IMG/VR virus record: IMGVR_UViG_3300023048_000001
Span: 32,001 to 96,000 of that record
DNA: 64,000 nucleotides
Origin: a virus
Taxonomy: Duplodnaviria; Caudoviricetes
Strand: one strand, 5' to 3'
Shown: positions 12,035 through 38,739 of the stretch, piece after piece
Layout of the letters: each line of letters opens with the position of its first letter
Position numbering within the stretch: position 1 is the first letter of the stretch
Notes under the pieces: generated by a model
Databases searched by the model: none
The model's input: only the letters and a program-made list of their open reading frames with translations
What the model was told of the DNA's origin: nothing
Translations under genes and position numbers: made by a program

Positions 12035-15000
12035 TTATAGGTATTTCTTAATACTGAAGTTATCCCACATATAGACATCACCGGTTCCTATACCCGAGTT
12101 GGTTGAACCACTGGTTAGCGTAGTTGGTGTTAATACCATCGAGAACTGTGTTGCAGAAGATGGGAAGGTAACATAAGTGACAAATGTTCCAGTACCATTT
12201 AAGTTATTGGAAGTAGAATAATATGTATTTGTACCATCACCAATGTTTACATTCAAATACTGAACAGCAGCATTCGTTGCTAGATAATCAAATTGTATTT
12301 TGTAGGTAATGGCTTGAGTGTTTGAGATTGCTCCACTCAATTTTGCTGTTACTGTACCCAATGCCAATGATACTGTGGACACTAATCTACCAGCATTAAT
12401 ACTCAACACACAGTTAGTACCACTGAATGCCGATGGTACTGAACCTGTTGAGAATGTACCATCAGTAACCAATTCTGGACCTGCCGCAGTTAATGTAACT
12501 GATGGTGTTAGCGTTGGTGTCACTGATCGTGTTTGTGTTAATGATGGTGTGATTGATAATGTTGGCGTTACTGTTGGTGTAATCGTTCTGGTCACTGTAA
12601 TTGAAGGTGTTGCGGTTACACTCGGAGTCACTGATTTGGTTGGTGTTACCGATGGTGTGATTGAAATAGTTGGTGAAACTGTTAATGTAGGTGTAACAGT
12701 TGGTGATACCGTCTTGGTAACGCTTGGTGTTACGGTAATTGTACCCGTCACTGATGGGGTCGCTGTCAATGTTGGCGTTGTTGTCAGCGTTGGGCTCATT
12801 GTTGGTGAAAGTGTCAGCGTAGGCGTCACAGCCATTGAAGTGGTTGCAGTAACTGATGGCGTAACTGTTATTGTCTGTGTCACTGTTGGTGATGGTGTTG
12901 GCGTTGGGGTATCGGTCAACGTTGGAGTAACAGTCACACTTGGTGTCACGGTAATCGTTGGTGAAGCTGTCACGGTATTTGTCACTGTTGGCGTGAATGT
13001 CACGCTTGGTGTCATTGAAATAGTGGATGTCAATGTTGGCGTAACAGTTAATGTAGGACTCAATGTAACTGATGGGGTTAATGTGATTGTTGGTGTAATT
13101 GATGCTGTAACTGTTGGTGTTACCGTTACTGATGGTGTAGTAGTGGTGGATGGTGTTGTTGTTACCGATGGAGTCACCGAAATGGTTTGAGTCACTGATG
13201 GTGAAACTGTTGGGGTAGGTGTTGCTGTCATACCTGAAGTGCCAGTAACTGATGGTGTTACTGTATTTGTAGGTGTAAGTGTTGGTGACACGGTTGCAGT
13301 TACAGAAGGCGTCATTGATGCTGTAGTTGAAATTGTTGGTGTGACTGTTGGCGTAGCTGACAATGAGATGGTAGCCGTGACTGATGGTGTCACCGTCACT
13401 GAAGCTGTTGGTGTTGGTGATTCAGTTAATGTTGGTGTAGCAGTCATTGTTGGAGTCAATGTAACGGATGGAGTCACAGAAATTGACTGCGTAACTGTTG
13501 GACTTAAGGTTACCGATGGCGTTGCAGTCATTGATGGCGTCAACGTAACTGATGGCGTAACTGATACTGACTGAGTTTGTGTTGGTGTTGGGGTTACTGC
13601 TGGTGTATCAGTAACGGTAGGTGTCATAGTAACGCTTGGTGTAAGTGTTGGTGAAACTGTTTGTGTAACTGTTGGAGTCATTGATGGAGACACAGTAAGC
13701 GTGGCTGTAGTTGTTGGTGTAGGTGTAACAGCCGGAGTATCTGTCATCGTAGGCGTAACAGTAAATGATGGTGTTACCGTAGTGGATGCGGTTTGTGTTG
13801 GTGTAATTGTAGGTGACGGTGTAGCCGTCACTGAAGGACTTAATGAAACAGTAGCCGTGATAGTTGGTGTAATAGTTGCACTTACTGTCTGTGTAACAGT
13901 TGGAGTTACCGTAGGTGTTATTGTCGTAGTCGTTGTTGGTGTAGGGGTTGGACTATCTGACACTGTAGGTGTAATCGTAGCTGTAACGGATGGTGTTACA
14001 GACGCAGTTTCAGAAATAGTTGGGGTTACAGTCAATGTGGGTGTTGATGAAACTCCCGGAGTATTTGTCACTGTAACTGTAGGCGTCACAGACGCGCTCA
14101 CAGAAGCCGTCTGTGATGGTGTTAATGAGATTGTAGGCGTAACTGTAGAAGTCGCTGTAGGCGTTAGTGAGGCAGTCACAGATATGGTTGGCGTGACTGT
14201 TGCCGTAATAGAACTTGTAACTGATGGTGTTAGTGAGGGGCTGACTGTTGTAGACACGGTAGGAGTTGGAGTTACCGTAGCTGAAGCACTTAATGAAAGG
14301 CTTGGGCTGATGGTAACCGTAGCCGTTACAGTAGGGGTTGGTGATTTAGTTGTAGTTGGCGTATTTGATGGAGCCACCAGCGTACCACTTGGAGCCATCG
14401 TTGGGGTTACTGTCACAGATGGTGTAGCGGTGGTGGTTGGTGTTGGAGTTACAGGGACGTTATCACGAGTCACTTTATAGAATGCCAAATCTTCTATAAA
14501 GTATTGTTTTGTTCTAGCAGCAGGAATCTTATAGTTTGCATCATCAAATAATTTTATAGTTAATGTAAGATTGCTATCAGAAGGCATGTAAAGATAATAA
14601 GAAATTCTTCCACTATCACGGATAGGACAATAGATCATCAAATCTTGTTGTAGATCGGAAATAGAATCACCAAACAAGAAGGGGTTATTTGATGATAATG
14701 TTACGATGGCATATCGACATATACCTTGTTCATAGTCAAACGAGAAATGATAGTAGTTATTACCCGAAACCGGCATATTACTTGCTGTAAAGGTAGGGAA
14801 CTGAGTTTTGTTGGCTGAAGCAGAAATCAACTGAATCTGATTCTTACCATTCTGAAATCCAGTTTTAGTAGTGCCATAAGCTGGAACCCACTGATTAATG
14901 TTTTTGAACCAATTATCTATAGCCATCCAAGTCATTGTAGGAGTCATGGTAGGTGTGGCAGTAGCAGCAGGGGTCTTGGTAGGCTGTCTAGACGGTGTTA

Positions 15001-15196
15001 CCGTGGGTGTTGGTGTACGTGTTACTAGGGATGCAGCAGTCAGATAGGCATTGGTGGTAAGAACAGTGTATGTCTTCCCTTTGGATACTATTACGTATGA
15101 GATTAGAACACCATTTGTATAGTTGATTGATGTGACCGCACCATACATTACAATAGTACCACTTAGAAAATATACAAAATCGCCAATTTTAAACAT
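12035..15196 (-). CDS. Mucin-like virion fibre protein: N-terminal module, CBM-like domain, ~650-aa Thr/Ser/Pro stalk, C-terminal beta-sandwich
   Basis: Translation; late motif AATAAATA at 15220-15227. Confidence 0.75.
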   Translation of the reverse strand: MFKIGDFVYFLSGTIVMYGAVTSINYTNGVLISYVIVSKGKTYTVLTTNAYLTAASLVTRTPTPTVTPSRQPTKTPAATATPTMTPTMTWMAIDNWFKNINQWVPAYGTTKTGFQNGKNQIQLISASANKTQFPTFTASNMPVSGNNYYHFSFDYEQGICRYAIVTLSSNNPFLFGDSISDLQQDLMIYCPIRDSGRISYYLYMPSDSNLTLTIKLFDDANYKIPAARTKQYFIEDLAFYKVTRDNVPVTPTPTTTATPSVTVTPTMAPSGTLVAPSNTPTTTKSPTPTVTATVTISPSLSLSASATVTPTPTVSTTVSPSLTPSVTSSITATVTPTISVTASLTPTATSTVTPTISLTPSQTASVSASVTPTVTVTNTPGVSSTPTLTVTPTISETASVTPSVTATITPTVSDSPTPTPTTTTTITPTVTPTVTQTVSATITPTITATVSLSPSVTATPSPTITPTQTASTTVTPSFTVTPTMTDTPAVTPTPTTTATLTVSPSMTPTVTQTVSPTLTPSVTMTPTVTDTPAVTPTPTQTQSVSVTPSVTLTPSMTATPSVTLSPTVTQSISVTPSVTLTPTMTATPTLTESPTPTASVTVTPSVTATISLSATPTVTPTISTTASMTPSVTATVSPTLTPTNTVTPSVTGTSGMTATPTPTVSPSVTQTISVTPSVTTTPSTTTTPSVTVTPTVTASITPTITLTPSVTLSPTLTVTPTLTSTISMTPSVTFTPTVTNTVTASPTITVTPSVTVTPTLTDTPTPTPSPTVTQTITVTPSVTATTSMAVTPTLTLSPTMSPTLTTTPTLTATPSVTGTITVTPSVTKTVSPTVTPTLTVSPTISITPSVTPTKSVTPSVTATPSITVTRTITPTVTPTLSITPSLTQTRSVTPTLTPSVTLTAAGPELVTDGTFSTGSVPSAFSGTNCVLSINAGRLVSTVSLALGTVTAKLSGAISNTQAITYKIQFDYLATNAAVQYLNVNIGDGTNTYYSTSNNLNGTGTFVTYVTFPSSATQFSMVLTPTTLTSGSTNSGIGTGDVYMWDNFSIKKYL
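12490..14455 (-). repeat. Degenerate TP[ST][VIL]T coding repeat tract
   Basis: Protein-level low-complexity repeat. Confidence 0.9.
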
Positions 15197-15240
15197 GCCT
15201 ATCCTTGGATTATGGAAATTATTTATTTAAATGAGAAATA

Positions 15241-15266
15241 AAAAGGGAACCTTTCGGCTCCCTTTT
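15241..15266 (-). terminator. Intrinsic terminator
   Basis: aaaaggga-a-cc-tttc-gg-c-tccctttt hairpin. Confidence 0.7.
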
Positions 15267-15305
15267 AATAGGCATTTTCGGCAAATCTTTAATATGTGAT
15301 ATAAA

Positions 15306-16076
15306 TCACATTTCTGCTGGCTCATCAGGAACTACAGCCATAGGAATATCTGGTGTAGGTTCAGGGGTCACTACTGGCGGAGGTGTAGGTGTAATGTCTA
15401 CAATCAAATCATCAGGATAAGTCATATTCCAAATAGCAACCCATTTAGGATCAGTAATTTTTGGTTTAACTAATTCAGTTCTATCAGAGAAATACTGACA
15501 ATAACTGAACAATAGTTGCTGATCTGTGATCTGTGTAAAGAAAGTAGAGTCATCTAATTCGGTAGCCCAAAAATAAATCAAATCTTGAGTAACGATAAAT
15601 GGTGCAAATCTATCATGGTCAGAAGCACGGATATATTTAACCCAACTGGACATGATAGAGGGTTCGGTCACATAATCAATTACAGTATCATAAATCTGGA
15701 ACACTGTAGCCCACATGTATGCACTAAATGAGGTCAACTGAGTAAAATCAAAATAATTGGAAAGAGTAGCAGCATCAAAAGTTTGACCAGAAGCAACTAC
15801 AGTGCATTTTGTTACAAAGGTAGCCAAAGGGTCAAATGCATAACTAGCAACATCACTTTCATCAAATGATACAATAACAAAGGTAGGGCCATCGAAATAG
15901 TCTAAATGTCCATTAACTTCAGCAACTAAAATTCCCGGAGGATTATAGTAGTAATACCCTGAATTATCGTCATAGATTTTAGTTGAGTCAAAGGTATATA
16001 CATCACCGGGTGTCGTAGACAAGGCCGCATGATATCCATCTTCTACAGTGTAAATTTTTCTTATAGCGTATTTCAT
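15306..16076 (-). CDS. Hypothetical protein with Pro-rich tail
   Basis: ORF directly downstream of 16085..19246; RBS AAGGA. Confidence 0.7.
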   Translation of the reverse strand: MKYAIRKIYTVEDGYHAALSTTPGDVYTFDSTKIYDDNSGYYYYNPPGILVAEVNGHLDYFDGPTFVIVSFDESDVASYAFDPLATFVTKCTVVASGQTFDAATLSNYFDFTQLTSFSAYMWATVFQIYDTVIDYVTEPSIMSSWVKYIRASDHDRFAPFIVTQDLIYFWATELDDSTFFTQITDQQLLFSYCQYFSDRTELVKPKITDPKWVAIWNMTYPDDLIVDITPTPPPVVTPEPTPDIPMAVVPDEPAEM

Positions 16077-16084
16077 ATATTTCC

Positions 16085-19000
16085 TTATGAGTAAGTATAG
16101 CCAATGGTGGTAGCATTTTCTCTTATTGTGACCGCATGTACTCTAACTGGTGGACCAACACTCAAGGTAGCATAGGTGAACTTTGCCGATGCAGGATAAC
16201 TAATAGTATTACCGCTACAATATTGTACTATTACTGAACTTCCAGTATTAGATATAAGATAAGTAAATGTATCAGTAGGTTGCGGTTTAACTAATAATAA
16301 ACCTGCCGGAGCCGATCCGGTTGCTAGACTGAGAGGTAAACTATTGGTTGCAACTGTTGCAGCACCCACTGTTGCAGCAACAGGATTATATGCTGATATG
16401 TATACATTGGTTGAACCGGCAACTCCAACCGAAACATATGAACTGGCGGTACTTGTTGATATACTTTGTGCTAAAACAATGCCGACTGGTACTGCACTTA
16501 GCACAGTTTGGGTAGATGTAGTAGCTAGAGTAAAAGTATCATCATTATTTATTTTATATACATTAATGTATGGAGCGACAGCTAACCCAAAAGCAACATA
16601 CTCTGCAAGACCGTCAACAGTTATAGTAGTATCAACGCAATACCAATTTCCTGTAAATGTGGTTAATATAGAAAATGACTCTGCTGATGAATTGAATTTG
16701 ATAGTTTTTCCACCAGCACCATTAGTATTGGCAAAAATATAATTACCACCCTTGGAAAATTTAAGTGCATTATATGTATATCCCATTGCTAATGTGCTCA
16801 AACGAGTAAATGTCCCATTGAAATTATTTTTGTAAACATATACGTTTGTTAACGCAGAAAGCGCAATGTACTTATTATCTGATGAGATATCTATCGCAGT
16901 AACAGCAGCAGCAATATCAGGAAATGGATTTGTCAATGGACTATAAGCACCATTATTTAATGTGAATGCTTGTGCGTTACCTACTGCGGAAGCATATCCA
17001 ACGAGCAATAAACTTGCATCAGAGCTTAAAACACAAACTTTTGCTGCATCACTAGCATAGCCTATTACTGGTATGTTAGTGCCATCATTAAACTTAGTTA
17101 ACTTCTGGACAGTGATGGGTGCTAAAGTAGAGTTTGCTGCTATAGCTACATAGGTATTAATGATATCATTATGTTGATCAACAACCGTATAATCAGTAGT
17201 TAATATTTTCTTTGCTGAAACAGTGAGCCCGTCTCGTAAAGCTAAACCGCCTCCCGATAATGGTGATGATATTTTAGCTAATCCACTAACTTTACTAGCA
17301 TAAGCATTACTAGTTAATGTACTATCAATATTGATAATATCACTAGCTCCCATTACATTTGAGCTTGTATATGATGTAGTAGTTGGTGGATTACCAGAAA
17401 GTACACTGTAATTATTTGATCCCGTAGAATTCCACTGTACGGTGTTATCTGAAGTTAGCGGTTCACTTACTACAGAACAAGCCCCTAGGCGGTTATAATT
17501 TTCTAATCCGCTACCATCAATAATATACATATCACTGACCTTCATAGGTAAGGTAACTTGTGATGATGTATTCACATCTCTCTTAAAGCATATACTAATA
17601 GGACCAGATAGAAATGATTTAAATTCACTAATATCAAAATTATTATATGTACCTACACCAGCATATATGGTCAAACTTTTTGAGCCTATATACAACAAGG
17701 CATTGGTAAGTCCTGTGTCGCTGGTAGAATTTATAATTAACTCAATATATACATTACTAAAGACACCATTAGAATATCCTACTGCATCGGCTGAAAGCTC
17801 TCTAATTCCATTAATGAAGCTACCACCAGTAGTAGATGAGAAATAGGTGCAACTTATAGAATTATCTTCTAAAGTTATAGAAAATCTAGATGGTCCATTA
17901 GCATAATTATAGTTATCGGATAGAGTGTTACCATTATAATTACCCGGAGCAATGACAGCAATGACATTGATTTGATTATCATATCTAACAATATTTGTGT
18001 TTGATGATAGTACTACGTAATTGTTATCAGAACTATAAGCAATTTGATTATAGTTATCTATTGGGTATGAATTAGGGTAGGATGTTATACTACCATTTGA
18101 TATTTTGTAAACTTTGGGTTGATAGCTACCAGTAAATAATACGGTGTATTTGTTTTTATTTGGATTATATAATATAGATTTAACTGGTGCAGTTAAAGCT
18201 TCAGGTAAAGCTACTGAAGGCATACCTGAAGCAATTGTGTATATTTGCATGTAAGGTGCAGAAGATGATCCTACTAACATGTATTTGTTGTCTGTGTTCT
18301 GGTTTGTATCAATACTAGTAACGTTAGTTAATCCAGATAGGGAGTATACTGGTTGATATGTTGGTATTGAAGTTGAAAAAAGAAAAGCAGATACTGATGT
18401 TTGGGTAGCCACATATATATAACCAGAATTTACATCTACTGAAACTGCTCTAGCACCTGCTGGCGGTAACGTGGCTGGATTAGCTGTTTTAGTCCAAGTA
18501 TCAGATCCTACTGTTTTAAGATAGAAGTTTACATAAGGTGTCGATCCGCCAACAATAATAAATGAATTATTATATGTGAACACACAATCAGTTACAGTTC
18601 CTGTTATACCATAACTGGTTATATTAGTATATGTATTTGCTCCAATATCTCTTTTATATATGTAAACATTGGAAGTTGCACCGGTTAATAGCATTAAAAA
18701 GTACATACCATCTGGTGAAAATCTAATCTTAGTCATAGTCAGTGTAGTTTGTACTTGAGAGAATATGCTCGTCCAATATGTATAACCATCTGCGCCCATT
18801 GTATTTCTGGTATAGAGCATAATTCTATTTGTATTAGATGAATCCCTAAAGGAAACTAATAAATGTGATCCATCAGAATTATAGGCGGCAGTGACATTTG
18901 TTAGGCCTGTAGGTAAGCTAGCTAGTGCAGATGACTCTACGGTCTGTGATCCACTATATGCATATTCACTTAAGCTGAAACCTATACCAACACGACCAAG

Positions 19001-19246
19001 GCCACTCGCAAATGTAGGTAAATTTGTATTATTAAGTGTAATACCAGTTTTGGATGCATAATAGCTACCATGAGTGGAACTAGCGGTTGTTACTGATAAG
19101 TCTAGACCATTATTAGAGTACCCATTTTTTGGATATGCATTAGTTAAATTGGCAGCACCTTCAGCGGTAAAAACACCCCATTTTGTAGATGGTATGGTTG
19201 CTGTTGTGTTATCAAATTTAAAATTATCAAAATATACGATGGACAT
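16085..19246 (-). CDS. Virion structural protein with two beta-propeller (WD40-like) regions
   Basis: Blade repeats (FSPDGMY, YKNNFNGTFTRL, PYINVYK); late motif GATAAATA 19266-19273. Confidence 0.65.
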   Translation of the reverse strand: MSIVYFDNFKFDNTTATIPSTKWGVFTAEGAANLTNAYPKNGYSNNGLDLSVTTASSTHGSYYASKTGITLNNTNLPTFASGLGRVGIGFSLSEYAYSGSQTVESSALASLPTGLTNVTAAYNSDGSHLLVSFRDSSNTNRIMLYTRNTMGADGYTYWTSIFSQVQTTLTMTKIRFSPDGMYFLMLLTGATSNVYIYKRDIGANTYTNITSYGITGTVTDCVFTYNNSFIIVGGSTPYVNFYLKTVGSDTWTKTANPATLPPAGARAVSVDVNSGYIYVATQTSVSAFLFSTSIPTYQPVYSLSGLTNVTSIDTNQNTDNKYMLVGSSSAPYMQIYTIASGMPSVALPEALTAPVKSILYNPNKNKYTVLFTGSYQPKVYKISNGSITSYPNSYPIDNYNQIAYSSDNNYVVLSSNTNIVRYDNQINVIAVIAPGNYNGNTLSDNYNYANGPSRFSITLEDNSISCTYFSSTTGGSFINGIRELSADAVGYSNGVFSNVYIELIINSTSDTGLTNALLYIGSKSLTIYAGVGTYNNFDISEFKSFLSGPISICFKRDVNTSSQVTLPMKVSDMYIIDGSGLENYNRLGACSVVSEPLTSDNTVQWNSTGSNNYSVLSGNPPTTTSYTSSNVMGASDIINIDSTLTSNAYASKVSGLAKISSPLSGGGLALRDGLTVSAKKILTTDYTVVDQHNDIINTYVAIAANSTLAPITVQKLTKFNDGTNIPVIGYASDAAKVCVLSSDASLLLVGYASAVGNAQAFTLNNGAYSPLTNPFPDIAAAVTAIDISSDNKYIALSALTNVYVYKNNFNGTFTRLSTLAMGYTYNALKFSKGGNYIFANTNGAGGKTIKFNSSAESFSILTTFTGNWYCVDTTITVDGLAEYVAFGLAVAPYINVYKINNDDTFTLATTSTQTVLSAVPVGIVLAQSISTSTASSYVSVGVAGSTNVYISAYNPVAATVGAATVATNSLPLSLATGSAPAGLLLVKPQPTDTFTYLISNTGSSVIVQYCSGNTISYPASAKFTYATLSVGPPVRVHAVTIRENATTIGYTYS

Positions 19247-29039: not shown

Positions 29040-32000
29040 TCATGGAGAAACATATCGGGTAGCAGTTTTAATGATTAAATTTCCCCACATGAACTGTCCA
29101 CCAGAACCAGACTGAGTTGTATTATCAAATGTTATCAATACGAACTTATCATTGTATGGGAAAGCTACCGGCCACGGCTGTGTGCTTCCACCACCATCCT
29201 GTGCAGCATCAAGATTACCAAGGAAATTCATTGATGAATCATAAACCAGCATGGTTGATCGGCCACCAGTTAAGATATAATCCTGACCATTAACAACAAA
29301 ATGCTTAGTTCCTTCATATCCTTGGCGGGTAGTATCCGCACCAACCAAAGTCCAATTGACAAGATCAGTTGAAGTTGCTAGTGCAGCATAAAAAGGTGAT
29401 CCGCTGAATGTAGTATTATCAACTATAGTGTAAGCTAATTTATAAGTGGTTCCATCGAACAGCATGCATGGATCATATGTGCCAGCATCAGCAGATAGTT
29501 TTCCCGGTAGATTTAGGATAGTTCCATTATTAAGAGTAAATCTACCACCACCAATTAAATTGTCAGTTGTGTGGAAATGTTCTACCTGAATAGTACCACC
29601 CGTACCAAACCCATTACCCCACGTAGCAAGATACATTTCAAATGAACCATCAGCATTCTTAACTATCTGTCCTGCAATATCTGAGGTTAGTACACCACCA
29701 CGTTCAATGATTATGGCAGAATCTTGTGAAACGGTGTAGGTAGTTAAATCTAATGAATAGACACCGATATAGCCAGCACCAGATGAATCAAATGAAGTCG
29801 CTGAGAATTGAACAACACCATTTGTGATAATTGGGCTATTGTCTGGATTTACGACAATGGAAAAATCTCTCATCTTCGAAGTACCGCAGATTCCTGATTT
29901 GAAATCTGAATATTTGAACGTAGCTGACTCTCCACTGAGTAGGCCAAATGCTGAATAGAATGTATTGATGGCAGTTGGATTCTCCATGAATGCAAATTTA
30001 TTATTTAAAGAATAATTTTCAGAGGTATACCATCCCGCCCCAATATCGTAATAAGAAATCACAGTATCATTTATCAAACTCATACCAATCTTAAATGGCA
30101 CAGTTGGTATACCAATCGATACACCATTAGAAAAGTATTGAGTACCATTTTGTTTAACCATAATAGATAGGTAACCATTCTGATTATTAAAAATTACACC
30201 TACGAAGTTATTGGCATCCTGAGCAACACCCGCAAATGTAATTTGGTAATTTGATGCACCAGATGGCATTTGTGTAATAGTGGATGATACGAATGCTTGA
30301 GGTGATACTAGAGGATCGCCCTGACCTAATAACGTTATAGAGGTGACTGCACCATTTATCGTTAGATTGGTGCCATCAGTATTATATGTAGATAGGCTAT
30401 CACCCAAACTTATTAAGTCTGTTAAACTAGATAAGTTATTATTAAAATCCAACGCATTACCCATAGGCTGAATATCAAAGTTTGATACTGTAGCCGCTGT
30501 AGTATAATGCTGGGATAACGGAGCTACTTCAAAAACTGCTACTGGACTTGCTGTTGGTGTTACAGAAGGAGTAGGCGTTGGCGTTATAGAAGTTTCACCC
30601 GTTGGCGTGAAACCAACAGGAATTGGATAGTCGAATTCGCTGTTTAGTGTTATATACTGGAAGTTCTGTAAACCATAATAGGTTGAACCGCCGAATTGGA
30701 ATATTGCGGAGCCGGGAGTAAACGTTTGAGTTGGATTAGTTCCAGTTGACGGATCACTATCATCAGCCCAAGTTCCGTTTAATCCATACCAGATATAACC
30801 AAGATCAAAGTCTACTGCCATCATGCATAGGTCACCTCTATCAGCAACACCTAAGTTAACCGAGACAATATCGCCCGTAGCATTTCTCAACACAACTGGA
30901 TTTCTATACGGTTGGATACCATAACCACCTGTTGGATTATCAAGTGATTGATAGGTAGAGGTGGTCGGCATCATACCGTACATTGGCCCCTCAAGGAAAG
31001 CTTGCGCAGTACTATTAGCTAGGAATTTATAACCCATGATATACTTACCAGTGGTAAACTGTCTTATGGATTTAACCCAACCATGCCCCATAGTATCAAT
31101 TTTATCGGCTTCATATTTTGATGGGAATGTATATAGATCATTTCCCGTGCTTAAATCCATAGGGTTTAAAGATGTTATCAAAGTACCTGAAGTAGTAATG
31201 GATGGCGTAGGGCTTGGTGATGGTGTAGGACTTGGTGTTTGTGTTATAGAAGGATTTTGAATGGCTAATGTTGCATGTGCCGCAACACGAGCAGGTGTAA
31301 GAACCCTGCTGTAATAAGCAAAGTCACTACCAAAGCCAACAGGAATATCACTATACTGTAAGCGGCCCATAACGTTCATTCTACCATACAGGGTAGGCGT
31401 TTCATTCACGGTAGCAGAAGCTACAAGAACACCATTTTCATATAGACAAGCTATTTTTGTGAAATTATCAAAGGTAAACACCACATGTAGTGTTTGCCCC
31501 AACGAATTAGTGTTTGGTGAAATAATATCTGTGTTCAACACACGCGCATTTAATGTACCATTATTATACCAAATAGCTGTACCACCACCCAAGTTATCCC
31601 ATTCAGCACCCATAATAATCTTATGGGTAGCACCACCGGTAATTTTAATGATAGCTTCAAGTGTAAATGAACTTGAAATTTCAGTAACCATTGGGCAGTA
31701 TGCAAGATTTGTCTCAACTGCAAGAACATTTGCCGATGCCGATGAACCATATCGTAATGGTGATGATCCAAGCTTAAGGTTGGTGGATGTTGAATATATG
31801 CCAGTATTACCATTCCCTGAGCTATCAATCATAGCTGTTGAACCGCTTGCTTCATCTAGTTTCCAATATGCTGTTGGACTATCAGACATTACAATACCTT
31901 CATATGTTGTAGGTAGAGGTGATGAAACAGTCACAGATGGTGTGATTGTTGGAGTCATTGTTGGAGTAGCAGTCAATGATGCTGTTGGAGTAATAGAAAG

Positions 32001-33947
32001 GTTAACTGAAATGGTTGGAGTAACTGATGGTGTAATAGAAATCGTCTGTGTAACTGATGGTGTCACAGAAATGGTTGGTGTGATCGTTGGCGTAATAGAT
32101 ATCGTTGGCGTAATTGTTGGTGTAATAGATATCGTTTGTGTAATTGATGGTGTTACTGTAATAGTTGGGGTGACGGTTACAGTAGGCGTAGGTGTAACTG
32201 CTGGTACTAATGGAAAGAACTGTGCAGTTTTATTTGTTGAATCATAGACCAGTGTACCAATGTCTGAACCATCAACGTTACTTGCTGAATTACTTTCACA
32301 GTTTACATAAATGACAGCATCGTTAACTAATAGACCACCAACGTTAATAAAGTCAGTACCAGACTGCTGCATCGATCCACCTAAGAAGCTCTGGAATTGA
32401 ACGCCAACGTTACCGGACACGCGCTGACCGTACCAGTTCAATCTTAATCTAATCGTAAAGTCTTCCTGTGGGTAGTCATCAGCTAACTGGTTGAAGTTAA
32501 CTATAACAGCCTCAGGACCACTTGGAGAGGTATTGTCGCCACCCCATGTCAAATAAACGCCATCATTAGTCTGACGACTCCAACCTACATCTACATCGCG
32601 TGCTGGATCAATAATAGCAGTTCTTGTATCCAAGTCAGTACCATCTGATGGAGTCCATGTGTAACGAACCAATGCAAAGTCAAATGGCTGGTTAAATGAA
32701 CCCGGTGTTGATGATGGCGTAATCGTAGGTGTAGGTGATGGCGTTAACGTCAATGAACGAGTAACTGTTGGCGTTGGTGTAGGAGTTGCCAATGGTGTTG
32801 AGCTAACTATAATTGTTGAAGATGGTGACATTGATGGTGTCAATGAATGTGTTGGAGAAATTGTAGGTGTGACTGATGGTGCTGGTGGAATAAAGTTCAC
32901 CGGCTTAACCATAAGAACATCTGGATATGTCTTTTCAACATTCGTAGGAGCTACAAAGAAATCAGTCGAATCATATGAGAAATAGTCAATATCGTTGTCA
33001 ACCATGTTGGCAACGTCAATAACTTTGTCCTTCACCTTGTCATTTGAGGTGAATGGAGTTGTGGCAAGCATGATATACAAGCCTTCTGGTGGAATCGGCT
33101 GTAGAACACCAGTACCGTAATCGATTCTGGTGATTTTAAGCTGTGTACCAGAAGGAATATCACTGAACTTCAAACTATCACCCCCAAGGGTTCTGAAGTC
33201 TAGAATGCTCTTACTGAATAGGTAATAGTTTCTACGGCGGCGAACAAGGATTTCGTTCCAACCAGCCCAAGGTACTTCAGTAAGGGAGTTTGACAAGTAT
33301 TCTGTACATAGTTCTTCTTCTTCATTTGGCTTCTTGATGCTTACTTCGATACGAATAGGAGTGTCGTCCAACTTGTAAGGGAGTGCAGGAGTAGGAAGCA
33401 ATGAAGGTGGATATTGGAATTTAGTAAGGTACTTAGGCACCGCGAAGGTAAAGTAGCCTTCAGCAGTAACCTGAAATAGGGCCACATCGTTAGCAACCAT
33501 CTGAGGGGTAAGCTTGATTGAGCTTCTTGAAACAAGCTGAGCTTTACCATTGTAGAAGTTATCAAATGTTACACGAATCTGGTTCTTATTAACGAATAGT
33601 AGGCTATACTGGTCAGGATCATCAAGTTTTTCTAATTTATTGTTTACATCGTAAACATAAATGGTGGTAGCTGGGTTTGTACCCAAGTCATGATCAATCA
33701 CCCAAACGTTGTTTGGAAGAGTCTGAGTATAATTAAACAGAACACGTCTCTGACTATAATCTTCCAGACCGGGAACCTCTGAAGGGAATTTCTCTCTGAT
33801 ATTATCAGGATTTCTCTTCGTTTTAAGAAGTTTCCCTTTGCATCCATAAGTGATGACACATTTAGAGAATGTGGTTAGACCATTACTGTTTTCAAGTAAA
33901 TCAATATCTCTATCACATATATTACATTTATATGTTAGCGTTGCCAT
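29040..33947 (-). CDS. Multidomain virion protein: Cys-containing N-terminus, TP linkers, LamG, SPRY-like and C-terminal glycoside-hydrolase-like propeller
   Basis: PTAYWKLDEASG (LamG); AVDFDLGYIWYGLNGTW (SPRY-like); YDP...TSTDLVNWT...YEG; late motif 33977-33984. Confidence 0.7.
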   Translation of the reverse strand: MATLTYKCNICDRDIDLLENSNGLTTFSKCVITYGCKGKLLKTKRNPDNIREKFPSEVPGLEDYSQRRVLFNYTQTLPNNVWVIDHDLGTNPATTIYVYDVNNKLEKLDDPDQYSLLFVNKNQIRVTFDNFYNGKAQLVSRSSIKLTPQMVANDVALFQVTAEGYFTFAVPKYLTKFQYPPSLLPTPALPYKLDDTPIRIEVSIKKPNEEEELCTEYLSNSLTEVPWAGWNEILVRRRRNYYLFSKSILDFRTLGGDSLKFSDIPSGTQLKITRIDYGTGVLQPIPPEGLYIMLATTPFTSNDKVKDKVIDVANMVDNDIDYFSYDSTDFFVAPTNVEKTYPDVLMVKPVNFIPPAPSVTPTISPTHSLTPSMSPSSTIIVSSTPLATPTPTPTVTRSLTLTPSPTPTITPSSTPGSFNQPFDFALVRYTWTPSDGTDLDTRTAIIDPARDVDVGWSRQTNDGVYLTWGGDNTSPSGPEAVIVNFNQLADDYPQEDFTIRLRLNWYGQRVSGNVGVQFQSFLGGSMQQSGTDFINVGGLLVNDAVIYVNCESNSASNVDGSDIGTLVYDSTNKTAQFFPLVPAVTPTPTVTVTPTITVTPSITQTISITPTITPTISITPTITPTISVTPSVTQTISITPSVTPTISVNLSITPTASLTATPTMTPTITPSVTVSSPLPTTYEGIVMSDSPTAYWKLDEASGSTAMIDSSGNGNTGIYSTSTNLKLGSSPLRYGSSASANVLAVETNLAYCPMVTEISSSFTLEAIIKITGGATHKIIMGAEWDNLGGGTAIWYNNGTLNARVLNTDIISPNTNSLGQTLHVVFTFDNFTKIACLYENGVLVASATVNETPTLYGRMNVMGRLQYSDIPVGFGSDFAYYSRVLTPARVAAHATLAIQNPSITQTPSPTPSPSPTPSITTSGTLITSLNPMDLSTGNDLYTFPSKYEADKIDTMGHGWVKSIRQFTTGKYIMGYKFLANSTAQAFLEGPMYGMMPTTSTYQSLDNPTGGYGIQPYRNPVVLRNATGDIVSVNLGVADRGDLCMMAVDFDLGYIWYGLNGTWADDSDPSTGTNPTQTFTPGSAIFQFGGSTYYGLQNFQYITLNSEFDYPIPVGFTPTGETSITPTPTPSVTPTASPVAVFEVAPLSQHYTTAATVSNFDIQPMGNALDFNNNLSSLTDLISLGDSLSTYNTDGTNLTINGAVTSITLLGQGDPLVSPQAFVSSTITQMPSGASNYQITFAGVAQDANNFVGVIFNNQNGYLSIMVKQNGTQYFSNGVSIGIPTVPFKIGMSLINDTVISYYDIGAGWYTSENYSLNNKFAFMENPTAINTFYSAFGLLSGESATFKYSDFKSGICGTSKMRDFSIVVNPDNSPIITNGVVQFSATSFDSSGAGYIGVYSLDLTTYTVSQDSAIIIERGGVLTSDIAGQIVKNADGSFEMYLATWGNGFGTGGTIQVEHFHTTDNLIGGGRFTLNNGTILNLPGKLSADAGTYDPCMLFDGTTYKLAYTIVDNTTFSGSPFYAALATSTDLVNWTLVGADTTRQGYEGTKHFVVNGQDYILTGGRSTMLVYDSSMNFLGNLDAAQDGGGSTQPWPVAFPYNDKFVLITFDNTTQSGSGGQFMWGNLIIKTATRYVSP

Positions 33948-33983: not shown

Positions 33984-35270
33984 TTAATTTGGTTGCCAGT
34001 ATTTTTTGATACGTTCATCATTTACGGAATGTGGTCTTGGATTCCCATGAAAACAAACAATACGGGCATTCTTAGGGATTTCAATCTGCCCTTGCTTATT
34101 AATGCAATGTCTTTTGTAAGATACGATCTGATTAGGGAACATATCCTGAAGATAATCAATAGAAGGCTTGTTTTCATCAATCCAACGCTGATCACCTTCA
34201 CGATAGCTGGTAATAATTTCTCTGGAACGTGGAACGAATCTAGTATAGATCAAATTAGTTTCAGTTGGATTCCATGACATGACACCACTTCCTAAAGAAT
34301 GTAGAGCATAGAAATCACGTAACCCAGCAAAGTTTCCTCGGTACGAAACAATTTCATCTATATTTCCAGTAATGATAGTGTCCAAATCCATATAGAAGAC
34401 ATGATTGGCAAACTGATCATGCTTAAACAATTCAAGCTTACCCCACCATGTAGGATAATCATTAGAGAATGGGATCACTCTATCAATATCTTTAGAGAAT
34501 CCAGTTGCATTGTCTGTTATACACACAATTTCATGATCAACAGTGATATTCTTCTTGATGCCCTTGGCAAGTGCATTTACATAATCAGCATTGTAAATCT
34601 CACCACCAGTTTTTAATACCATAGCAATCGTAACTTTTTCAGGTCTTTCGAATTTAAAGTTTAGTGGACGTTTGCTGATATCAAGACATTTGATCGCAAT
34701 AAATTGTTCCTTGCGACCATCTACCATCATTTGACGTGAAACATTGATGTCATCAGCATGGCGTGCTAAGAAGTCTTTAACTGCCATATGCTGCGAATGA
34801 TTGTGCCCTTCATCAAAGTCTGAAATATAAATGGTTCCAGAATATGTCATCTTTGTCCACAAATAATCCAATGCAAGTGAAGTAATGTTATTCTGTTTAA
34901 GATCGACTACAGCAAAGCAGAATGTCGTGTTCGATGGAATGATATCATTTAGGTCATGATACCCATTTGTTTGTAAAATCGAATATTTTGTATCATCAAC
35001 ATTATTTCTTTTTAAATATGCAAAGACGGGCTGTGGGAGAACAGCGTACTGGCCTTTCTTAATTTCATTAAAATTTGGATGACGTAAATCATGCTTATCT
35101 GGCTCTGGTAGACCTTTGAAGGTATCGATACCATAGCATTTCTTATTAGTGTGTTTAACAAAAGTGATTAGGTCAATAAAGCTCCCACCATCATTGATTC
35201 TCAAATCTATGACATCACCCTGTAACTTTAGTGAATCTTTAAGGTGTAATTTTTGTTTGTTGTGCATCAT
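33984..35270 (-). CDS. Fusion: TylF/MycF-like methyltransferase (divergent) plus GT8-like glycosyltransferase
   Basis: YGIDTFKGLPEP; WWGKLELF, FYMDLD, SGVM, GDQ, CFHGNPRPH; ATG 35270 coupled to upstream stop. Confidence 0.75.
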   Translation of the reverse strand: MMHNKQKLHLKDSLKLQGDVIDLRINDGGSFIDLITFVKHTNKKCYGIDTFKGLPEPDKHDLRHPNFNEIKKGQYAVLPQPVFAYLKRNNVDDTKYSILQTNGYHDLNDIIPSNTTFCFAVVDLKQNNITSLALDYLWTKMTYSGTIYISDFDEGHNHSQHMAVKDFLARHADDINVSRQMMVDGRKEQFIAIKCLDISKRPLNFKFERPEKVTIAMVLKTGGEIYNADYVNALAKGIKKNITVDHEIVCITDNATGFSKDIDRVIPFSNDYPTWWGKLELFKHDQFANHVFYMDLDTIITGNIDEIVSYRGNFAGLRDFYALHSLGSGVMSWNPTETNLIYTRFVPRSREIITSYREGDQRWIDENKPSIDYLQDMFPNQIVSYKRHCINKQGQIEIPKNARIVCFHGNPRPHSVNDERIKKYWQPN

Positions 35271-35950
35271 AATGGTTTGGATAACTTCTTTACGGCTGCT
35301 GATAGGGTATAACGCGGAAAGCAATCAATATTGCTGGTTGGACTCGCATTGATAACTTCGATATTGGCAGCTTTCAATTGAGTTAAAGTTGATCTGAAGA
35401 TAGATGGTAAATGACTTAGTGATCGGGTGGTCTTCTTTTCATTATAGAAATATCCAGCCGATGCATCGAGACCAAAGAAAGCAATTCGTTTAGGTCGTAA
35501 ATGATAAGCCAAATTCAAAGCACCAAATCCTGAGTTGCCAGTATTGATACAACTTGGGTCTTCATTTAATCCCCAAGTGAGCATATCGTATGGTTTAACA
35601 TCAGCACAACTATGAAAAGGAATTCTATGCAGGTAATTGATGGTTGGGTCAGCTTCAATCTTATGATCACCACTTCTTGCATCCATCATCCCGTAATCTT
35701 CTGGAACAGCAGAAAATAGATCACCAGTGAAACCCTTTGGAATCTGGCCTTTGGTTAAACCCCAAGGATCAAGAGTGAACCATGCATCAGCATAAGGAAG
35801 GTACTTACCTGCATCATTTACGGCAATGATGTAACCCTTATTTCTCAAGTTCTCAAAATTAAAATTCATTAAACTTGGACCCGAACAGACTATGATTACT
35901 GTGTCAGGACGTAATGTTGTGTTGACTCTTGACCATCTGATACCGCTCAT
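35267..35950 (-). CDS. Maf/DUF115 (GT42-like fold) putative glycosyltransferase
   Basis: IVCSGPSL, IAVND, NSGFGALNLA, IAFFGLD, VINASP. Confidence 0.65.
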   Translation of the reverse strand: MSGIRWSRVNTTLRPDTVIIVCSGPSLMNFNFENLRNKGYIIAVNDAGKYLPYADAWFTLDPWGLTKGQIPKGFTGDLFSAVPEDYGMMDARSGDHKIEADPTINYLHRIPFHSCADVKPYDMLTWGLNEDPSCINTGNSGFGALNLAYHLRPKRIAFFGLDASAGYFYNEKKTTRSLSHLPSIFRSTLTQLKAANIEVINASPTSNIDCFPRYTLSAAVKKLSKPL

Positions 35951-36897
35951 TCATGATTCCTTAGTAATTCTTGATAGAAAATACTATTCTCTACCTTCAC
36001 CGCGTTAGACAAATCACTCCAATTCATTTGTCTTTCATATAGTGAAACAATTAAATTCTTTCTTTCTTGATCAGAATTTAGATTTCTGGATGTAACACCA
36101 GCACCCAAACTGATTACGTTAGAATGATATAGCATCGTCTCGATCAATACTGTGGAGTTGATCCCAACTACCATATCTGCATAAGGTATATAGTGGTGAA
36201 CATCACCCTTTACCTCTATAAATTTGTCATAATTTCCTACGTTTGCTGGGACAAGTGGGTGTCGTTTGAAAAGAATATCTCTATCATCATACTGATAGAT
36301 GTCACTAACATATTGCATTAACTCATCCATCGTTTTAAATGGTGAATATTTGACAATCTGAGTATCAGTCTCTACCTGTAGTGGGACAAAGATGAATGGC
36401 TTATCATGAAGCCTATTCTTTTTATTATCTTCTTGTAATTTATTAATTAGTGAATCAGTATAATCTACATCTTTTGATTGTAGGGGTGATGATATGTTTG
36501 ACAACCTGCAATTGACACCAACAAGATCGAAATAGCATGTCTTTCCATAGTGATTGAAGAATCCTAGCTCACCATAGATAATTTTTATACCTCTGGCCTT
36601 CAACGTCTTGATTGTCAATTGGTCGGAGGGTAGGTTTCCATTCCATATAAAAGAAAAGTCAGGTTTAAATCGAATAGCATTGAGGTAGGCATCAGCATTA
36701 CTTTCATTAAAAGTATCCAATTGATAGACTTTATTGTAGTCATCTGTAACAGCGCCAGCCTTGGTGTGACAAATGATATAAGTTTTATGTCCCATTCTTT
36801 CTAATGTATTAGCTAAGTCTTTAAATAGACTAAGAATAGACTTGTAATTCTGAGCAGTTTCATGATTATTTAAAGCTACAGTAAAAAGGAAATTCAT
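35947..36897 (-). CDS. KpsS/capsule-biosynthesis-like (GT107-type) glycosyltransferase
   Basis: IWNG, ELGFF, D..GVN, FVPLQVETDTQI, FKRHP, INSTVLIE. Confidence 0.75.
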   Translation of the reverse strand: MNFLFTVALNNHETAQNYKSILSLFKDLANTLERMGHKTYIICHTKAGAVTDDYNKVYQLDTFNESNADAYLNAIRFKPDFSFIWNGNLPSDQLTIKTLKARGIKIIYGELGFFNHYGKTCYFDLVGVNCRLSNISSPLQSKDVDYTDSLINKLQEDNKKNRLHDKPFIFVPLQVETDTQIVKYSPFKTMDELMQYVSDIYQYDDRDILFKRHPLVPANVGNYDKFIEVKGDVHHYIPYADMVVGINSTVLIETMLYHSNVISLGAGVTSRNLNSDQERKNLIVSLYERQMNWSDLSNAVKVENSIFYQELLRNHE

Positions 36898-37361
36898 TAT
36901 CTGTACCTTATAAATTTGGCAGGTGATCCCGCTACAATGGCTCTAGCCTCTACAGATTTGTTAACGAAACTGTTGGCTCCAACGATACAATCATTATTGA
37001 GGACAATGCCATGATTGATGGTACATTGACCACTTACCCAAACGTTGTCCCCAATCACCAATGTACTTCTAAGCATCTTCTCTTCAATCAAAGGAACATC
37101 TGTAATCTGGTGAGAAGAGGCCAGTAAGATAGTGCTTGGGCCGATCAACGACCCTTTTCCAATGGACATCTTGCCAGTACATTGAATAAAATTATGATAT
37201 CCAATAACACTCTTTTCACCAATCTCAAGTTCACCTTCCATTTCTATAACAGTATAGGCTCTGATCTGGACCTTATCACGTAGGATGATAGTCCCGCTTC
37301 CGATAAATTTTACCGTTGGATCGATTCTAACGTTATTTCCTTTGATGATATCTAATGTCAT
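36897..37361 (-). CDS. Hexapeptide-repeat sugar O-acetyltransferase
   Basis: Left-handed beta-helix repeats; IGDNVWV, IVGANSFV, IVAGSPAKFIR. Confidence 0.9.
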   Translation of the reverse strand: MTLDIIKGNNVRIDPTVKFIGSGTIILRDKVQIRAYTVIEMEGELEIGEKSVIGYHNFIQCTGKMSIGKGSLIGPSTILLASSHQITDVPLIEEKMLRSTLVIGDNVWVSGQCTINHGIVLNNDCIVGANSFVNKSVEARAIVAGSPAKFIRYR

Positions 37362-38092
37362 TATAACTCTTCTCTAATAAGTTTTATTTCTGGATGAATT
37401 TTTGAATATTTATCCACTAGATTTAGGTAGTGTGGATAGCCAAGATTCTTATATTCTTCAATATCTTTAAATGGTTGCCTATTAGGGATTATTTTATTAA
37501 AGCTGCTGTATCGGGTCTGACTCAATAAATGAATAATAGGAGAACTTAAGGCGAAGGCTACTTTTTTATTCTTTCTATAAAGGTTTTCAAAAATAAAATC
37601 ATCACCACAATAAAAATCAAGAACAGAAGGAATATCCACCCATTCTGACTTTCTAAAAGTAAAATCCCAACCTTGTCTGGTCTTTTCATCAAGAACAACG
37701 TATGAGAGTTCTTTTTTAGCTACAGTCCAATCTTTATGATTAGTTGGGTGGATTACACAGGAAACATCTGATTCAATATCAAAAATTTGTCTTGTATCAC
37801 TTAAAAAGTTAGAAGGGATGCGAATATCATTGTTCAAGAAAGAACAAACATCACCTTGCGCTATTTTTATGAACTCGTTCCATATAGCGTTCAATGGCCT
37901 GTTGAAGCCATTCTGTATAACTACGTTACCTTCGGCCATCATCTGGTCTAGGAATGCCTCTGTACCCGGTTCTACGGAGTTCTGATCCACTATGATCAAC
38001 TCATAGTGCTTGTAATTTTGTTTCTTTAAATCTTTTACCAGATTCTTTGTATGTTCTAAACAATTGAAGTTGACGATTAAGCAAGATATCAT
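37361..38092 (-). CDS. GT2 family glycosyltransferase
   Basis: ISCLIVNFN, ELIIVDQNS, FLNNDI, CGDD. Confidence 0.85.
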   Translation of the reverse strand: MISCLIVNFNCLEHTKNLVKDLKKQNYKHYELIIVDQNSVEPGTEAFLDQMMAEGNVVIQNGFNRPLNAIWNEFIKIAQGDVCSFLNNDIRIPSNFLSDTRQIFDIESDVSCVIHPTNHKDWTVAKKELSYVVLDEKTRQGWDFTFRKSEWVDIPSVLDFYCGDDFIFENLYRKNKKVAFALSSPIIHLLSQTRYSSFNKIIPNRQPFKDIEEYKNLGYPHYLNLVDKYSKIHPEIKLIREEL

Positions 38093-38736
38093 AAGTAGTT
38101 CTCTAGTTTGTCTTTTCTAAAGCAATCAAGAGCCGAAGATGGTGAACAGTTGACCACATCAATTTTCATATTCTTCAGACCCGGTGCCATGCTGTTGATA
38201 GATGGGATGAACATATCATCATAAACATAATTGCCCATAGGCAGACCATGACCTTCATGCCAGTGAGATTGTCCACGGGATAGTTTCATATCGTAGCCAA
38301 GAAGGATGATTCTTTTCACCTTAATATTGGCTAAAAGGTTTAACATGTGTGCCCCACTGTTATTTCCTCTTACGTTATCAATATTCATGTCAATCCCATA
38401 GTCTCCTGTTCTGCGAAGAACAGTGGCATTTCCAGAGGCTAATATATTTCCTTTAATATAACCATCTGCACTATGCCTTGCAGTGAAACGAAGTTGACAG
38501 GAATGATTCATAACGTTATCATAGTGGGTTCCGATCCAGCTTTCATCGCACCAATACAGTGCAGTTGCATCAGGAAACTCTCTGTACGCTGTATTCAGAC
38601 AGATAATGTTTTTGCCTTTTAATGAAGATTTATCGACCATTTTGAAACTAGGACCACCTCCTATAACAAAAACGTCTCTACCGCTAACTTTATCGTAAAG
38701 TTGTTGTATTTTATCTCGCATTTTGCTACCATTCAT
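38089..38736 (-). CDS. Maf/DUF115-like putative glycosyltransferase (paralog of 35267..35950)
   Basis: VIGGGPSF, ICLN, NNSGAHMLNL, IILLGYD, VVNCSP. Confidence 0.65.
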   Translation of the reverse strand: MNGSKMRDKIQQLYDKVSGRDVFVIGGGPSFKMVDKSSLKGKNIICLNTAYREFPDATALYWCDESWIGTHYDNVMNHSCQLRFTARHSADGYIKGNILASGNATVLRRTGDYGIDMNIDNVRGNNSGAHMLNLLANIKVKRIILLGYDMKLSRGQSHWHEGHGLPMGNYVYDDMFIPSINSMAPGLKNMKIDVVNCSPSSALDCFRKDKLENYL

Positions 38737-38739
38737 CTT

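Follow-up and report, generated by a model that had tools for sequence, protein, structure and literature searches.

We analyzed a stretch of 64,000 nucleotides (the window), comprising bases 32001-96000 of a single 174,626-bp IMG/VR viral contig (IMGVR_UViG_3300023048_000001), with respect to a group of giant proteins carrying long Thr/Ser/Pro tracts and to the dozen or so putative sugar-transfer genes of the same phage. The explanation that best accounts for the whole of the data, to which we assign a probability of about 0.55, is that these proteins are modular stalks O-glycosylated by a glycosyltransferase of family GT60, its cluster partners and an operon linked to the fiber genes. An initial annotation of the window had already proposed that the phage O-glycosylates its own stalks and had emphasized the operon, located at 33984-38736; comparative GT60/tract co-occurrence favors the first part of this proposal, but the enzyme it indicates is GT60. 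Across genomes, the enzyme that tracks the tracts is GT60 with an HtrL-like partner, and not the operon. The contig (GC content 0.41; completeness ~50% by CheckV) represents roughly half the genome of an uncultured, XacN1-like jumbo myovirus. It encodes a class I ribonucleotide reductase (RNR), a thymidylate synthase, a B-family DNA polymerase, a T4 gp15-like sheath stabilizer and a tail sheath protein; its nearest isolated relatives are Xanthomonas phages XacN1 and Xoo-sp13 and Stenotrophomonas phages RAS14 and CM1 (protein identity ~40-60%), and uncultured relatives of 300-350 kb exist.

When tracts in window proteins were defined by a combined Thr, Ser and Pro (T+S+P) content of at least 60%, five open reading frames (ORFs) of the window were found to carry them: 12035-15196 (protein A), 19272-23909 (protein C), 25043-29005 (protein D) and 29040-33947 (protein E), all on the minus strand, and 44607-45773 (protein F) on the plus strand. 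The initial annotation had singled out these same proteins for their tracts and for lacking a signal peptide, and both observations were borne out. The tracts reach up to ~690 aa and hold a total of 1,016 Ser/Thr residues, and no hydrophobic stretch resembling a signal peptide or a membrane-spanning segment was present in the 12 proteins of the fiber module, as expected for phage proteins, because these leave the cell by lysis. The longest tracts, of 670 aa in protein A and 688 aa in protein D, maintain at least 60% T+S+P throughout, which is the composition of a mucin Pro/Thr/Ser domain. Four further tract proteins (U1-U4) are encoded left of the window (genome 75-12177) and, together with the five inside it, bring the number on the contig to nine.

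The tracts follow a strictly period-2 (Thr/Ser)-X pattern, with autocorrelation values of +/-0.75-0.87 over 231-688 aa, in which the non-hydroxyl positions are occupied by Pro, Val, Ile, Leu or Ala. Prolines almost always stand an even number of residues apart (99 of 103 Pro-Pro intervals in protein A; 101 of 107 in protein D). At the DNA level, Tandem Repeats Finder detected only short arrays, with periods of 24, 30, 60 and 84 nt and 70-90% identity, which rules out DNA-slippage repeats as the origin of the tracts. Since the tracts are not recent tandem DNA repeats, it is selection, rather than slippage, that keeps the amino-acid pattern.

In Dictyostelium and T. cruzi, it is GT60 enzymes that initiate mucin-type O-glycosylation on Thr (PMC8724618, PMC3769586). 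The phage GT60 gene lies 2.3 kb left of the window, at window positions -3678 to -2281 (genome 28322-29719), and encodes a 465-aa protein matching PF11397 (E 2.3e-78) over profile positions 1-350 of 352, with 264.6 bits against a cut-off of 21. A DSH triplet (D114-S115-H116) is invariant in 27 aligned GT60 homologues; it corresponds to the GT-A metal-binding DxH motif, the catalytic motif of families GT27 and GT60. No membrane anchor was found in the phage protein, whose top 19-residue hydropathy is 0.73 and whose first residues already form the first beta-strand; being predicted to be soluble, it resembles the cytoplasmic Skp1-type members of the family. It also possesses an extra conserved C-terminal region of ~130 aa. 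A search of the GT60 profile against solved structures returned no match.

The GT60 gene is directly upstream of a NodU/CmcH-type carbamoyltransferase gene, encoding 776 aa (Carbam_trans_C, E 1.9e-57; Carbam_trans_N, E 1.3e-24), which starts left of the window and whose 3' end occupies 1..89 (+); this order matches XacN1 ORF334-ORF333. The cluster then continues into the window, where the initial annotation had described four more glycosyltransferase genes at 86-5468. Two of these held up to different degrees: a 546-aa protein (1678..3318, +) is a solid member of the HtrL_YibB family (PF09612, E 5.5e-22), and a 287-aa protein (4605..5468, +) is probably a GT-B-like glycosyltransferase, with an ESM Atlas feature score of 0.96, template modeling (TM) scores of 0.77-0.81 to ESM Atlas clusters bearing Glyco_trans_1_2 or GT90, and a weak match to PF13524 (E 0.033). 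The other two did not, since a 283-aa protein (86..937, +) belongs to no Pfam or PHROG family and a 243-aa protein (934..1665, +) has only a weak, below-cut-off match to DUF1647 (PF07801, E 0.004). They are syntenic with XacN1 ORF332 and ORF331, respectively, and the order from GT60 through the carbamoyltransferase to the genes at 86-3318 is that of XacN1 ORF334 to ORF330. A PHROG search with the genes at 86-5468 gave no match.

Among isolated phages (50,697 records), GT60 is present only in XacN1, Xoo-sp13, CM1 and RAS14, the same four isolates that carry the N-terminal module of protein E, and metagenomes contain more than 6,500 GT60 homologues and at least 519 viral contigs that encode them. 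An HtrL-like protein is encoded together with GT60 in 75 of the 83 viral loci and in 27 of the 80 bacterial ones, and as judged from these associations it is the likeliest candidate for a second-step enzyme paired with GT60. The 283-aa protein, too, has homologues near GT60 (no more than 10 kb away), at 21 viral and 11 bacterial loci. Two records of relatives (G004:C1:38136-40457 and G005:C1:22242-24563, from which loci L009 and L010 derive) contain an 897-aa frame with two tandem GT60 domains. Left of the window, genome 20691-21311 encodes a 206-aa protein with a weak match to 2-oxoglutarate/Fe(II) oxygenases (E 6e-4, below cut-off), which might be a prolyl hydroxylase that provides hydroxyproline as an alternative sugar acceptor.

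The relationship between GT60 and the tracts was assessed locally by scoring Thr-rich tracts of at least 60 aa within 10 kb of the gene. In counts that take in related contigs, such a tract was found in 51 of 83 viral and 38 of 80 bacterial GT60 loci, compared to 4 of 80 control viral loci centered on homologues of the Maf-like proteins of the operon. After clustering at 70% identity and removal of close relatives, the association persisted in 5 of 7 GT60 clusters versus 0 of 24 Maf-like clusters (Fisher p = 1.2e-4). Furthermore, fewer than 150 bp separate GT60 from a tract ORF upstream on the same strand in 25 of 99 cases. In an unrelated phage contig of ~55 kb (L116), tract proteins are followed by GT60 and then by a methyltransferase and more glycosyltransferases. 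After the GT60 cluster, this contig also encodes a 782-aa Hoc-like Ig-domain protein (L116:16564-18912), which hints at a capsid-decoration context.

The association extends beyond immediate neighbors. A DNA pattern specifying two nearby Thr-Pro-(Ser/Thr)-hydrophobic-(Ser/Thr) units gave 121 matches in the contig and none when read backwards. It was found in all seven XacN1-like records examined and in none of 42 GT60-negative phage contigs (~2.9 Mb, one 429-kb jumbo phage included). Among 33 GT60-positive records without a flanking tract, 15 match the pattern elsewhere, and the six records with a completeness of at least 90% are all among these 15; these six and three XacN1-like phages make up the nine complete GT60-positive phage genomes, all of which (9/9) contain the pattern. 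PHROG matches of the tract proteins from other GT60 phages were restricted to the tract region.

In bacteria, GT60 genes are adjoined by genes encoding VgrG spikes of type VI secretion systems (T6SS) with C-terminal (Thr-Pro)n tails in Ralstonia, Paraburkholderia, Trinickia, Achromobacter and Dyella, a genomic proximity that suggests that these spikes may be glycosylated. The tails span 60-150 aa and the spike genes lie 1-6 kb from GT60, as in L177:12285-15146 (Ralstonia sp. 25C) and in L178, L186, L187, L188, L190, L191 and L195. Other bacterial tract proteins encoded near GT60 (9 bp to 4.7 kb) present twin-arginine (Tat) signal motifs at their N-terminus (L229:8445-9992, L173:11414-12121, L208:8510-9691, L207:2687-3442, L197:8956-9822, L228:858-2696 and L237:13213-13731). 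Both VgrG and Tat proteins leave the cytoplasm finished and folded, and hence fit a soluble cytoplasmic glycosyltransferase acting before export, in parallel with phage proteins released by lysis; this pattern is drawn from few cases and from inspection of N-termini. We tentatively put forward, at somewhat short of even odds, a broader scheme of widespread prokaryotic and viral mucin-type O-glycosylation, in which a cytoplasmic GT60 and its HtrL-like partner would act on (Thr/Ser)-X stalks that exit by lysis, T6SS or Tat, and in which, in the present phage clade, a second cassette of sialyltransferase-like enzymes linked to the fiber genes would cap the glycans with acidic sugars and so yield a viral glycocalyx.

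The operon emphasized by the initial annotation had been described as six translationally coupled, sugar-related genes, and this description was upheld. If the ATG at 35270 is taken as the start of the last gene, all five junctions are ATGA or TAATG overlaps, and all six genes yield glycan-related matches in Pfam, PHROG or Foldseek searches. Reading along the minus strand, the operon encodes a 215-aa Maf/MptE-like transferase (Maf1; 38089..38736) with a GT42 sialyltransferase-like fold (phrog_4603, E 1.8e-39); three variable inserts, namely a GT2 glycosyltransferase (37361..38092; PF00535, E 1.4e-14), a hexapeptide-repeat acyltransferase (36897..37361; PF00132, E 8.3e-12) and a KpsS/KpsC-like (Capsule_synth) transferase (35947..36897; PF05159, E 7.1e-7, above cut-off); a second Maf/MptE-like (DUF115) transferase of 227 aa (Maf2; 35267..35950; phrog_2111, E 4.7e-45; phrog_4603 "alpha-2,3-sialyltransferase", E 3.1e-18), with 50% identity to XacN1 ORF374; and a fusion of a TylF-like methyltransferase (N-terminal; PF05711, E 2.6e-4, below cut-off) to a glycosyltransferase (C-terminal; phrog_1962, E 2e-42, aa 232-444) at 33984..35270, the ATG of which overlaps the preceding stop codon as ATGA. 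The KpsS/KpsC-like insert is present in relatives L006 and L008 and missing from L007, L009-L011 and XacN1.

Both Maf-like proteins miss the PF01973 gathering threshold (22.4 and 25.4 bits against 34.6), and many of their homologues carry a precomputed PF01973 match. The fold was modeled for the 215-aa Maf1, yielding a mean predicted local distance difference test (pLDDT) score of 92.9 with AlphaFold2 and, in Foldseek searches, top matches to CstII and Cst-I (E 1.6e-5; TM ~0.5 to CstII) and further resemblance to the MptE kinase and to Maf 5MU5 (E 2.1e-3). Residues H158 and H160, either of which might correspond to the catalytic His of CstII, are invariant across 36 homologues. PDB sequence searches with the single Maf-like proteins returned nothing useful, and a profile search returned only a weak match to MptE.

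The operon head is separated from a divergent gene by a 43-bp control region (38737..38779) with TAAATA on both strands. The divergent gene (38780-39310, +) encodes a 176-aa protein of no known family and faces the operon head across the 43-bp spacer in 8/8 relatives, with 34-65% identity. The initial annotation had interpreted TAAATA as a late motif common to the giant genes and the operon, and it does occur 24-45 nt before every giant gene and the operon head. At the level of the contig, 35 of 260 ORFs have the TAAATA core within the 70 nt that precede them, mostly 24-45 nt from the start codon, compared to ~6.5 expected by chance; the full T4-type late promoter octamer TATAAATA has 10 occurrences only. 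Genes preceded by the TAAATA core include the tail sheath gene, but also those for RNR alpha and the divergent 176-aa protein; a late assignment is hence plausible yet not specific.

Comparison of eight relatives revealed that the order 176-aa gene, Maf1, optional inserts, Maf2, methyltransferase-glycosyltransferase fusion and protein E module is kept in seven of them, most of which continue past the E module with a D-type module and a 260-aa protein. The eighth, L012, retains Maf1, the C-terminal glycosyltransferase half of the fusion and the E module, with no Maf2 match at the expected position. The operon is thus part of the fiber module of this clade, yet it does not track the tracts. The initial annotation had suggested testing the co-occurrence of operon and tract genes across jumbo phages; in 80 viral Maf1 loci, a tract within 10 kb is confined to the four nearest relatives, and an equivalent bacterial control (11 loci, none with a tract) was too small for use.

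These results bear on an alternative that we deem unlikely, in which roles are split so that the GT60 cluster glycosylates the tracts and the Maf-like operon modifies the N-terminal modules of E and D, the 260-aa protein or some other target. Homologues of E and D vary widely in length among relatives (345-1635 aa and 137-1320 aa, respectively), and the operon core is kept with the E module in L009, L011 and L012, where the adjoining E and D are short and tract-free; in addition, 73 unrelated phage loci with Maf-like homologues have no tract within 10 kb. The fold match of Maf1 to 5MU5 points in the same direction, given that the known Maf acceptors are specific Ser/Thr residues on folded flagellin. 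Against such a division of labor, these same relatives bear tracts elsewhere in their genomes (34 pattern matches in G004 and 2 in G007), so that within this clade the operon never occurs without tract proteins, and the operon and tract genes have strand and promoter motif in common. What connects operon and tracts is nonetheless confined to position and this common motif, because operon homologues elsewhere are tract-free and the operon is kept beside tractless E and D.

The giant proteins have a mosaic make-up, in which the N-terminal 240 aa are common to A, C and F and the first 310 aa are common to D and U3, Laminin_G_3 domains are found repeatedly, in C, E, U1 and U3, and so are beta-propellers, in B and D. 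Protein A (12035..15196, -; 1053 aa) consists of a small N-terminal domain, a beta-sandwich, the tract (aa 239-908, approximately nt 12473-14482) and a C-terminal globular domain; its gene presents TAAATA at -33 and -29, both of which follow a hairpin terminator (15241-15266). Next to it are genes for a 256-aa protein without Pfam or PHROG match (15306..16076, -) and for protein B (16085..19246, -; 1053 aa), which is composed of beta-propeller-like repeats with a weak WD40 match, resembles the C-terminus of protein D and has no Thr/Pro tract at or above 60% T+S+P. Protein C (19272..23909, -; 1545 aa) combines an A-like N-terminus with three lectin-like Laminin_G_3 stretches (PF13385, E 5.1e-27) and tracts at aa 732-962 and 1370-1520 (nt 21024-21716 and 19350-19802). 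Protein F (44607..45773, +; 388 aa; TAAATA at -33) joins an A/C-like N-terminus to a 161-aa C-terminal tract (aa 228-388, nt 45288-45770).

Protein D (25043..29005, -; 1320 aa) is built from a conserved 310-aa N-terminal module, with 32% identity to the upstream U3 and 58-62% to relatives, a tract (aa 307-994, nt 26024-28087) and a C-terminal beta-propeller. It is followed by the 260-aa protein (24227..25009, -), which is kept after the D-type gene in relatives, with homologues in L009, L010 and L011 and an N-terminal fragment at the end of L006; it matches PHROGs of unknown function and, among phages, shows a weak match to Salicola phage SCTP-2 alone. Protein E (29040..33947, -; 1635 aa) comprises an N-terminal module of ~350 aa (Cys4 and Ig-like) that is present in every relative compared, two tracts (aa 344-437 and 574-692, nt 32637-32918 and 31872-32228) and more globular domains. 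Of the lectin, propeller and hydrolase domains listed in the initial annotation, Laminin_G_3 and the beta-propeller were confirmed, whereas no hydrolase domain was confirmed in the giant proteins by Pfam searches. Tracts of another kind were observed in two relatives: the L009 record (G004:C1:59370-61355) contains near-perfect tandem coding repeats of the (Thr-Pro-Ser-Ile)n or (Thr-Pro-Thr-Val)n kind, and the same kind occurs at either end of the G005 genome, which has direct terminal repeats (G005:C1:3-202 and 306633-306754). The window tracts are degenerate, unlike these repeats of G004 and G005.

Several features would place the tract proteins on the virion. The genes for U1-U4 lie directly upstream of the gp15-like sheath stabilizer and tail sheath genes on the same strand, XacN1 ORF369-372 are placed likewise, and the giant genes and the tail sheath gene have the TAAATA motif in common. 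In addition, a conserved N-terminus with a variable C-terminus is a layout typical of phage receptor-binding proteins, to which these proteins may be compared by analogy. In XacN1, virions contain at least two Schiff-positive protein bands, which its authors credit to the phage glycosyltransferases ORF328 and ORF334 (PMC5852040); sequence and synteny comparison identifies ORF334 as the GT60 homologue.

It is improbable, in our estimate, that glycosylated tract proteins are instead not stably held in the virion and are freed at lysis as soluble, lectin- or enzyme-bearing bottlebrush proteins that would condition extracellular polysaccharide (EPS) or mucus or serve as decoys. The N-terminal modules match no known baseplate, fiber or capsid protein, as would suit soluble proteins: the N-terminus of protein D had no ESM Atlas match above 0.87 and no tblastn match among phages, and the module of protein E gave a poor AlphaFold2 model (pLDDT 63.8) with only generic Ig-like Foldseek matches. 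The genes for A, C and F also lie outside the tail gene block, and electron microscopy (EM) of XacN1 revealed no tail fibers, although this last result either fits thin, flexible stalks or argues against fibers. The position of U1-U4 and XacN1 ORF369-372 next to the sheath genes, the receptor-binding-like layout and the promoter motif in common with the tail sheath gene all speak against such release.

Similarly improbable in our estimate is the remaining alternative, that the sugar genes remodel the host envelope (lipopolysaccharide [LPS], capsule or EPS), for instance against superinfection, with the tracts as plain spacers of the sugar-free Thr/Pro kind that occurs in many proteins. Jumbo-phage glycosyltransferase clusters have been read as capsular-polysaccharide modification in a comparative study (PMC7824862), and relatives of CstII, KpsS/C and HtrL do belong to lipooligosaccharide, capsule or LPS pathways, but this alternative leaves unexplained the tight and often adjacent GT60/tract pairing in phages and bacteria and the 0/42 result in GT60-negative contigs, and it is at odds with the protein-directed activity of GT60 enzymes (PMC8724618), with the lack of a membrane anchor in phage GT60 and with the Schiff-positive virion proteins of XacN1.

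O-glycosylation of the stalks by GT60, its partners and the fiber-linked operon would proceed as follows. The phage would produce a family of modular fiber or decoration proteins, each with a conserved N-terminal module, long stalks of the (Thr/Ser)-X type and end domains that vary and may be lectin-like, beta-propellers or of another kind. Late in infection, in the cytoplasm, the soluble GT60-type transferase would place a first sugar, probably N-acetylglucosamine (GlcNAc), on stalk hydroxyls, which the HtrL-like protein, the carbamoyltransferase and the GT-B-like protein would then extend or tailor. The fiber-linked operon would add a clade-specific decoration, possibly, and speculatively, acidic ulosonic sugars drawn from host cytidine monophosphate (CMP)-sugar pools; ulosonic acids are suggested because two core enzymes of the operon have a CMP-sugar-type fold and one insert is KpsS/C-like. 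The product may be a hydrated "coat" with possible roles in resistance to desiccation or proteases, adhesion or shielding.

The tracts, the enzyme families, the synteny and the genome-wide co-occurrence of GT60 and tracts are observed, whereas we infer that the stalks are glycosylated at all, from which donor and on which acceptor, in what order the enzymes act, what the operon modifies and that the proteins belong to the virion. A number of points weigh against this reading. Because related contigs were counted, independent co-occurrence events are few, with only seven distant viral clusters, and the GT60 gene of this phage is separated from the closest tract gene by ~15 kb. The XacN1 paper does not assign its Schiff-positive bands to particular proteins, and its fiber-less EM is matched by an annotation without tail fibers (PMC5852040). 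The N-terminal modules match no known structural protein by fold or family in tblastn, PHROG, ESM Atlas or Foldseek searches. With regard to the operon, NeuB, CMP-transferase and NAD-epimerase genes were looked for on the ~50%-complete contig and none was found, to which must be added its conservation beside short, tract-free E and D in three relatives and the 73 tract-free Maf-like loci of unrelated phages.

Comparison with known systems highlights both precedents and differences. As in the protist enzymes, the phage GT60 matches PF11397 over its full length, carries the DSH motif and has as genomic partners Thr-rich, mucin-like tracts that match known acceptors; unlike them, it lacks a Golgi anchor, possesses the extra ~130-aa C-terminal region and has an HtrL-like partner, and its activity is predicted from sequence. 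Serine-rich repeat adhesins, which are glycosylated in the cytoplasm with GlcNAc first, followed by extension and acetylation enzymes (PMC5578698, PMC6973325), resemble the phage proteins in having a very long dipeptide-type stalk of hydroxy amino acids that displays a binding domain. In contrast, the phage repeats are Thr/Pro-based rather than Ser-based, the enzyme is GT60 rather than the GT4 GtfA of the GtfA/GtfB pair, and the carrier is a phage. The accessory Sec system has no part in the phage scheme, because release is by lysis; no look-alike of GtfA/GtfB or SecA2/SecY2 was seen among the annotated neighbors, in which no search aimed at these was made.

Mycobacteriophages, according to Freeman et al. 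2023 as reported in PMC12619734, use their own glycosyltransferases to modify short C-terminal sites on capsid and tail-tube subunits. The system proposed here likewise involves phage-encoded glycosyltransferases acting on the phage's own structural proteins, but would target hundreds of stalk residues through other enzyme families in a phage whose relatives have Gram-negative hosts. The Maf/GT42 proteins (CstII, Cst-I) resemble the 215-aa protein in predicted fold, and its homologues carry PF01973, whereas the window proteins fall below the Pfam cut-off and are single-domain proteins of ~215-227 aa, compared to ~630 aa for Maf. XacN1 belongs to the same clade, and both its block of GT60, carbamoyltransferase and three further genes and its block of Maf1, Maf2, methyltransferase-glycosyltransferase and giant tract proteins are syntenic with those described here; it differs in having the three-gene operon core only, and its authors drew no link from the glycoproteins to Thr/Pro proteins or to the GT60 family. 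In the literature searched, we found no description of glycosylation involving GT60 and Thr/Pro tracts in phages or bacteria. The statement of the initial annotation that no such phage system had been described holds to that extent, with the reservation that the Schiff-positive virion proteins of XacN1 had already been published (PMC5852040).

Glycosylation of phage particles has hardly been explored except in actinobacteriophages. If the reading favored here is true, mucin-type glycosylation would no longer be a eukaryotic specialty, and a function could be assigned to hundreds of Thr/Pro "linkers" that are so far unexplained in phage, T6SS and Tat-exported proteins. It would also have consequences for the way in which large phages adhere to slime, mucus and biofilms, and for their resistance to proteases and drying. 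Cultured XacN1, with its Schiff-positive virion proteins and both gene blocks, makes the proposal directly testable.

Some further observations were made on the contig. The end of the window (62001-64000) reaches a GC content of 0.49, compared to ~0.38 in the adjoining sequence. On the minus strand, the window encodes a papain-like cysteine protease (47104-47844), whose XacN1 counterpart is listed as the papain-family protease ORF382, a Thg1-type tRNA-His guanylyltransferase (50013-50729), an enzyme that the XacN1 record and paper list too, and a protein of the GMP-reductase/IMPDH family (50730-51761), GMP reductase being likewise listed for XacN1. Left of the window, between the tail sheath and DNA polymerase genes, genome 18198-18647 encodes a 149-aa protein with a TnsA-like endonuclease N-terminal domain (PF08722, E 8.5e-24).

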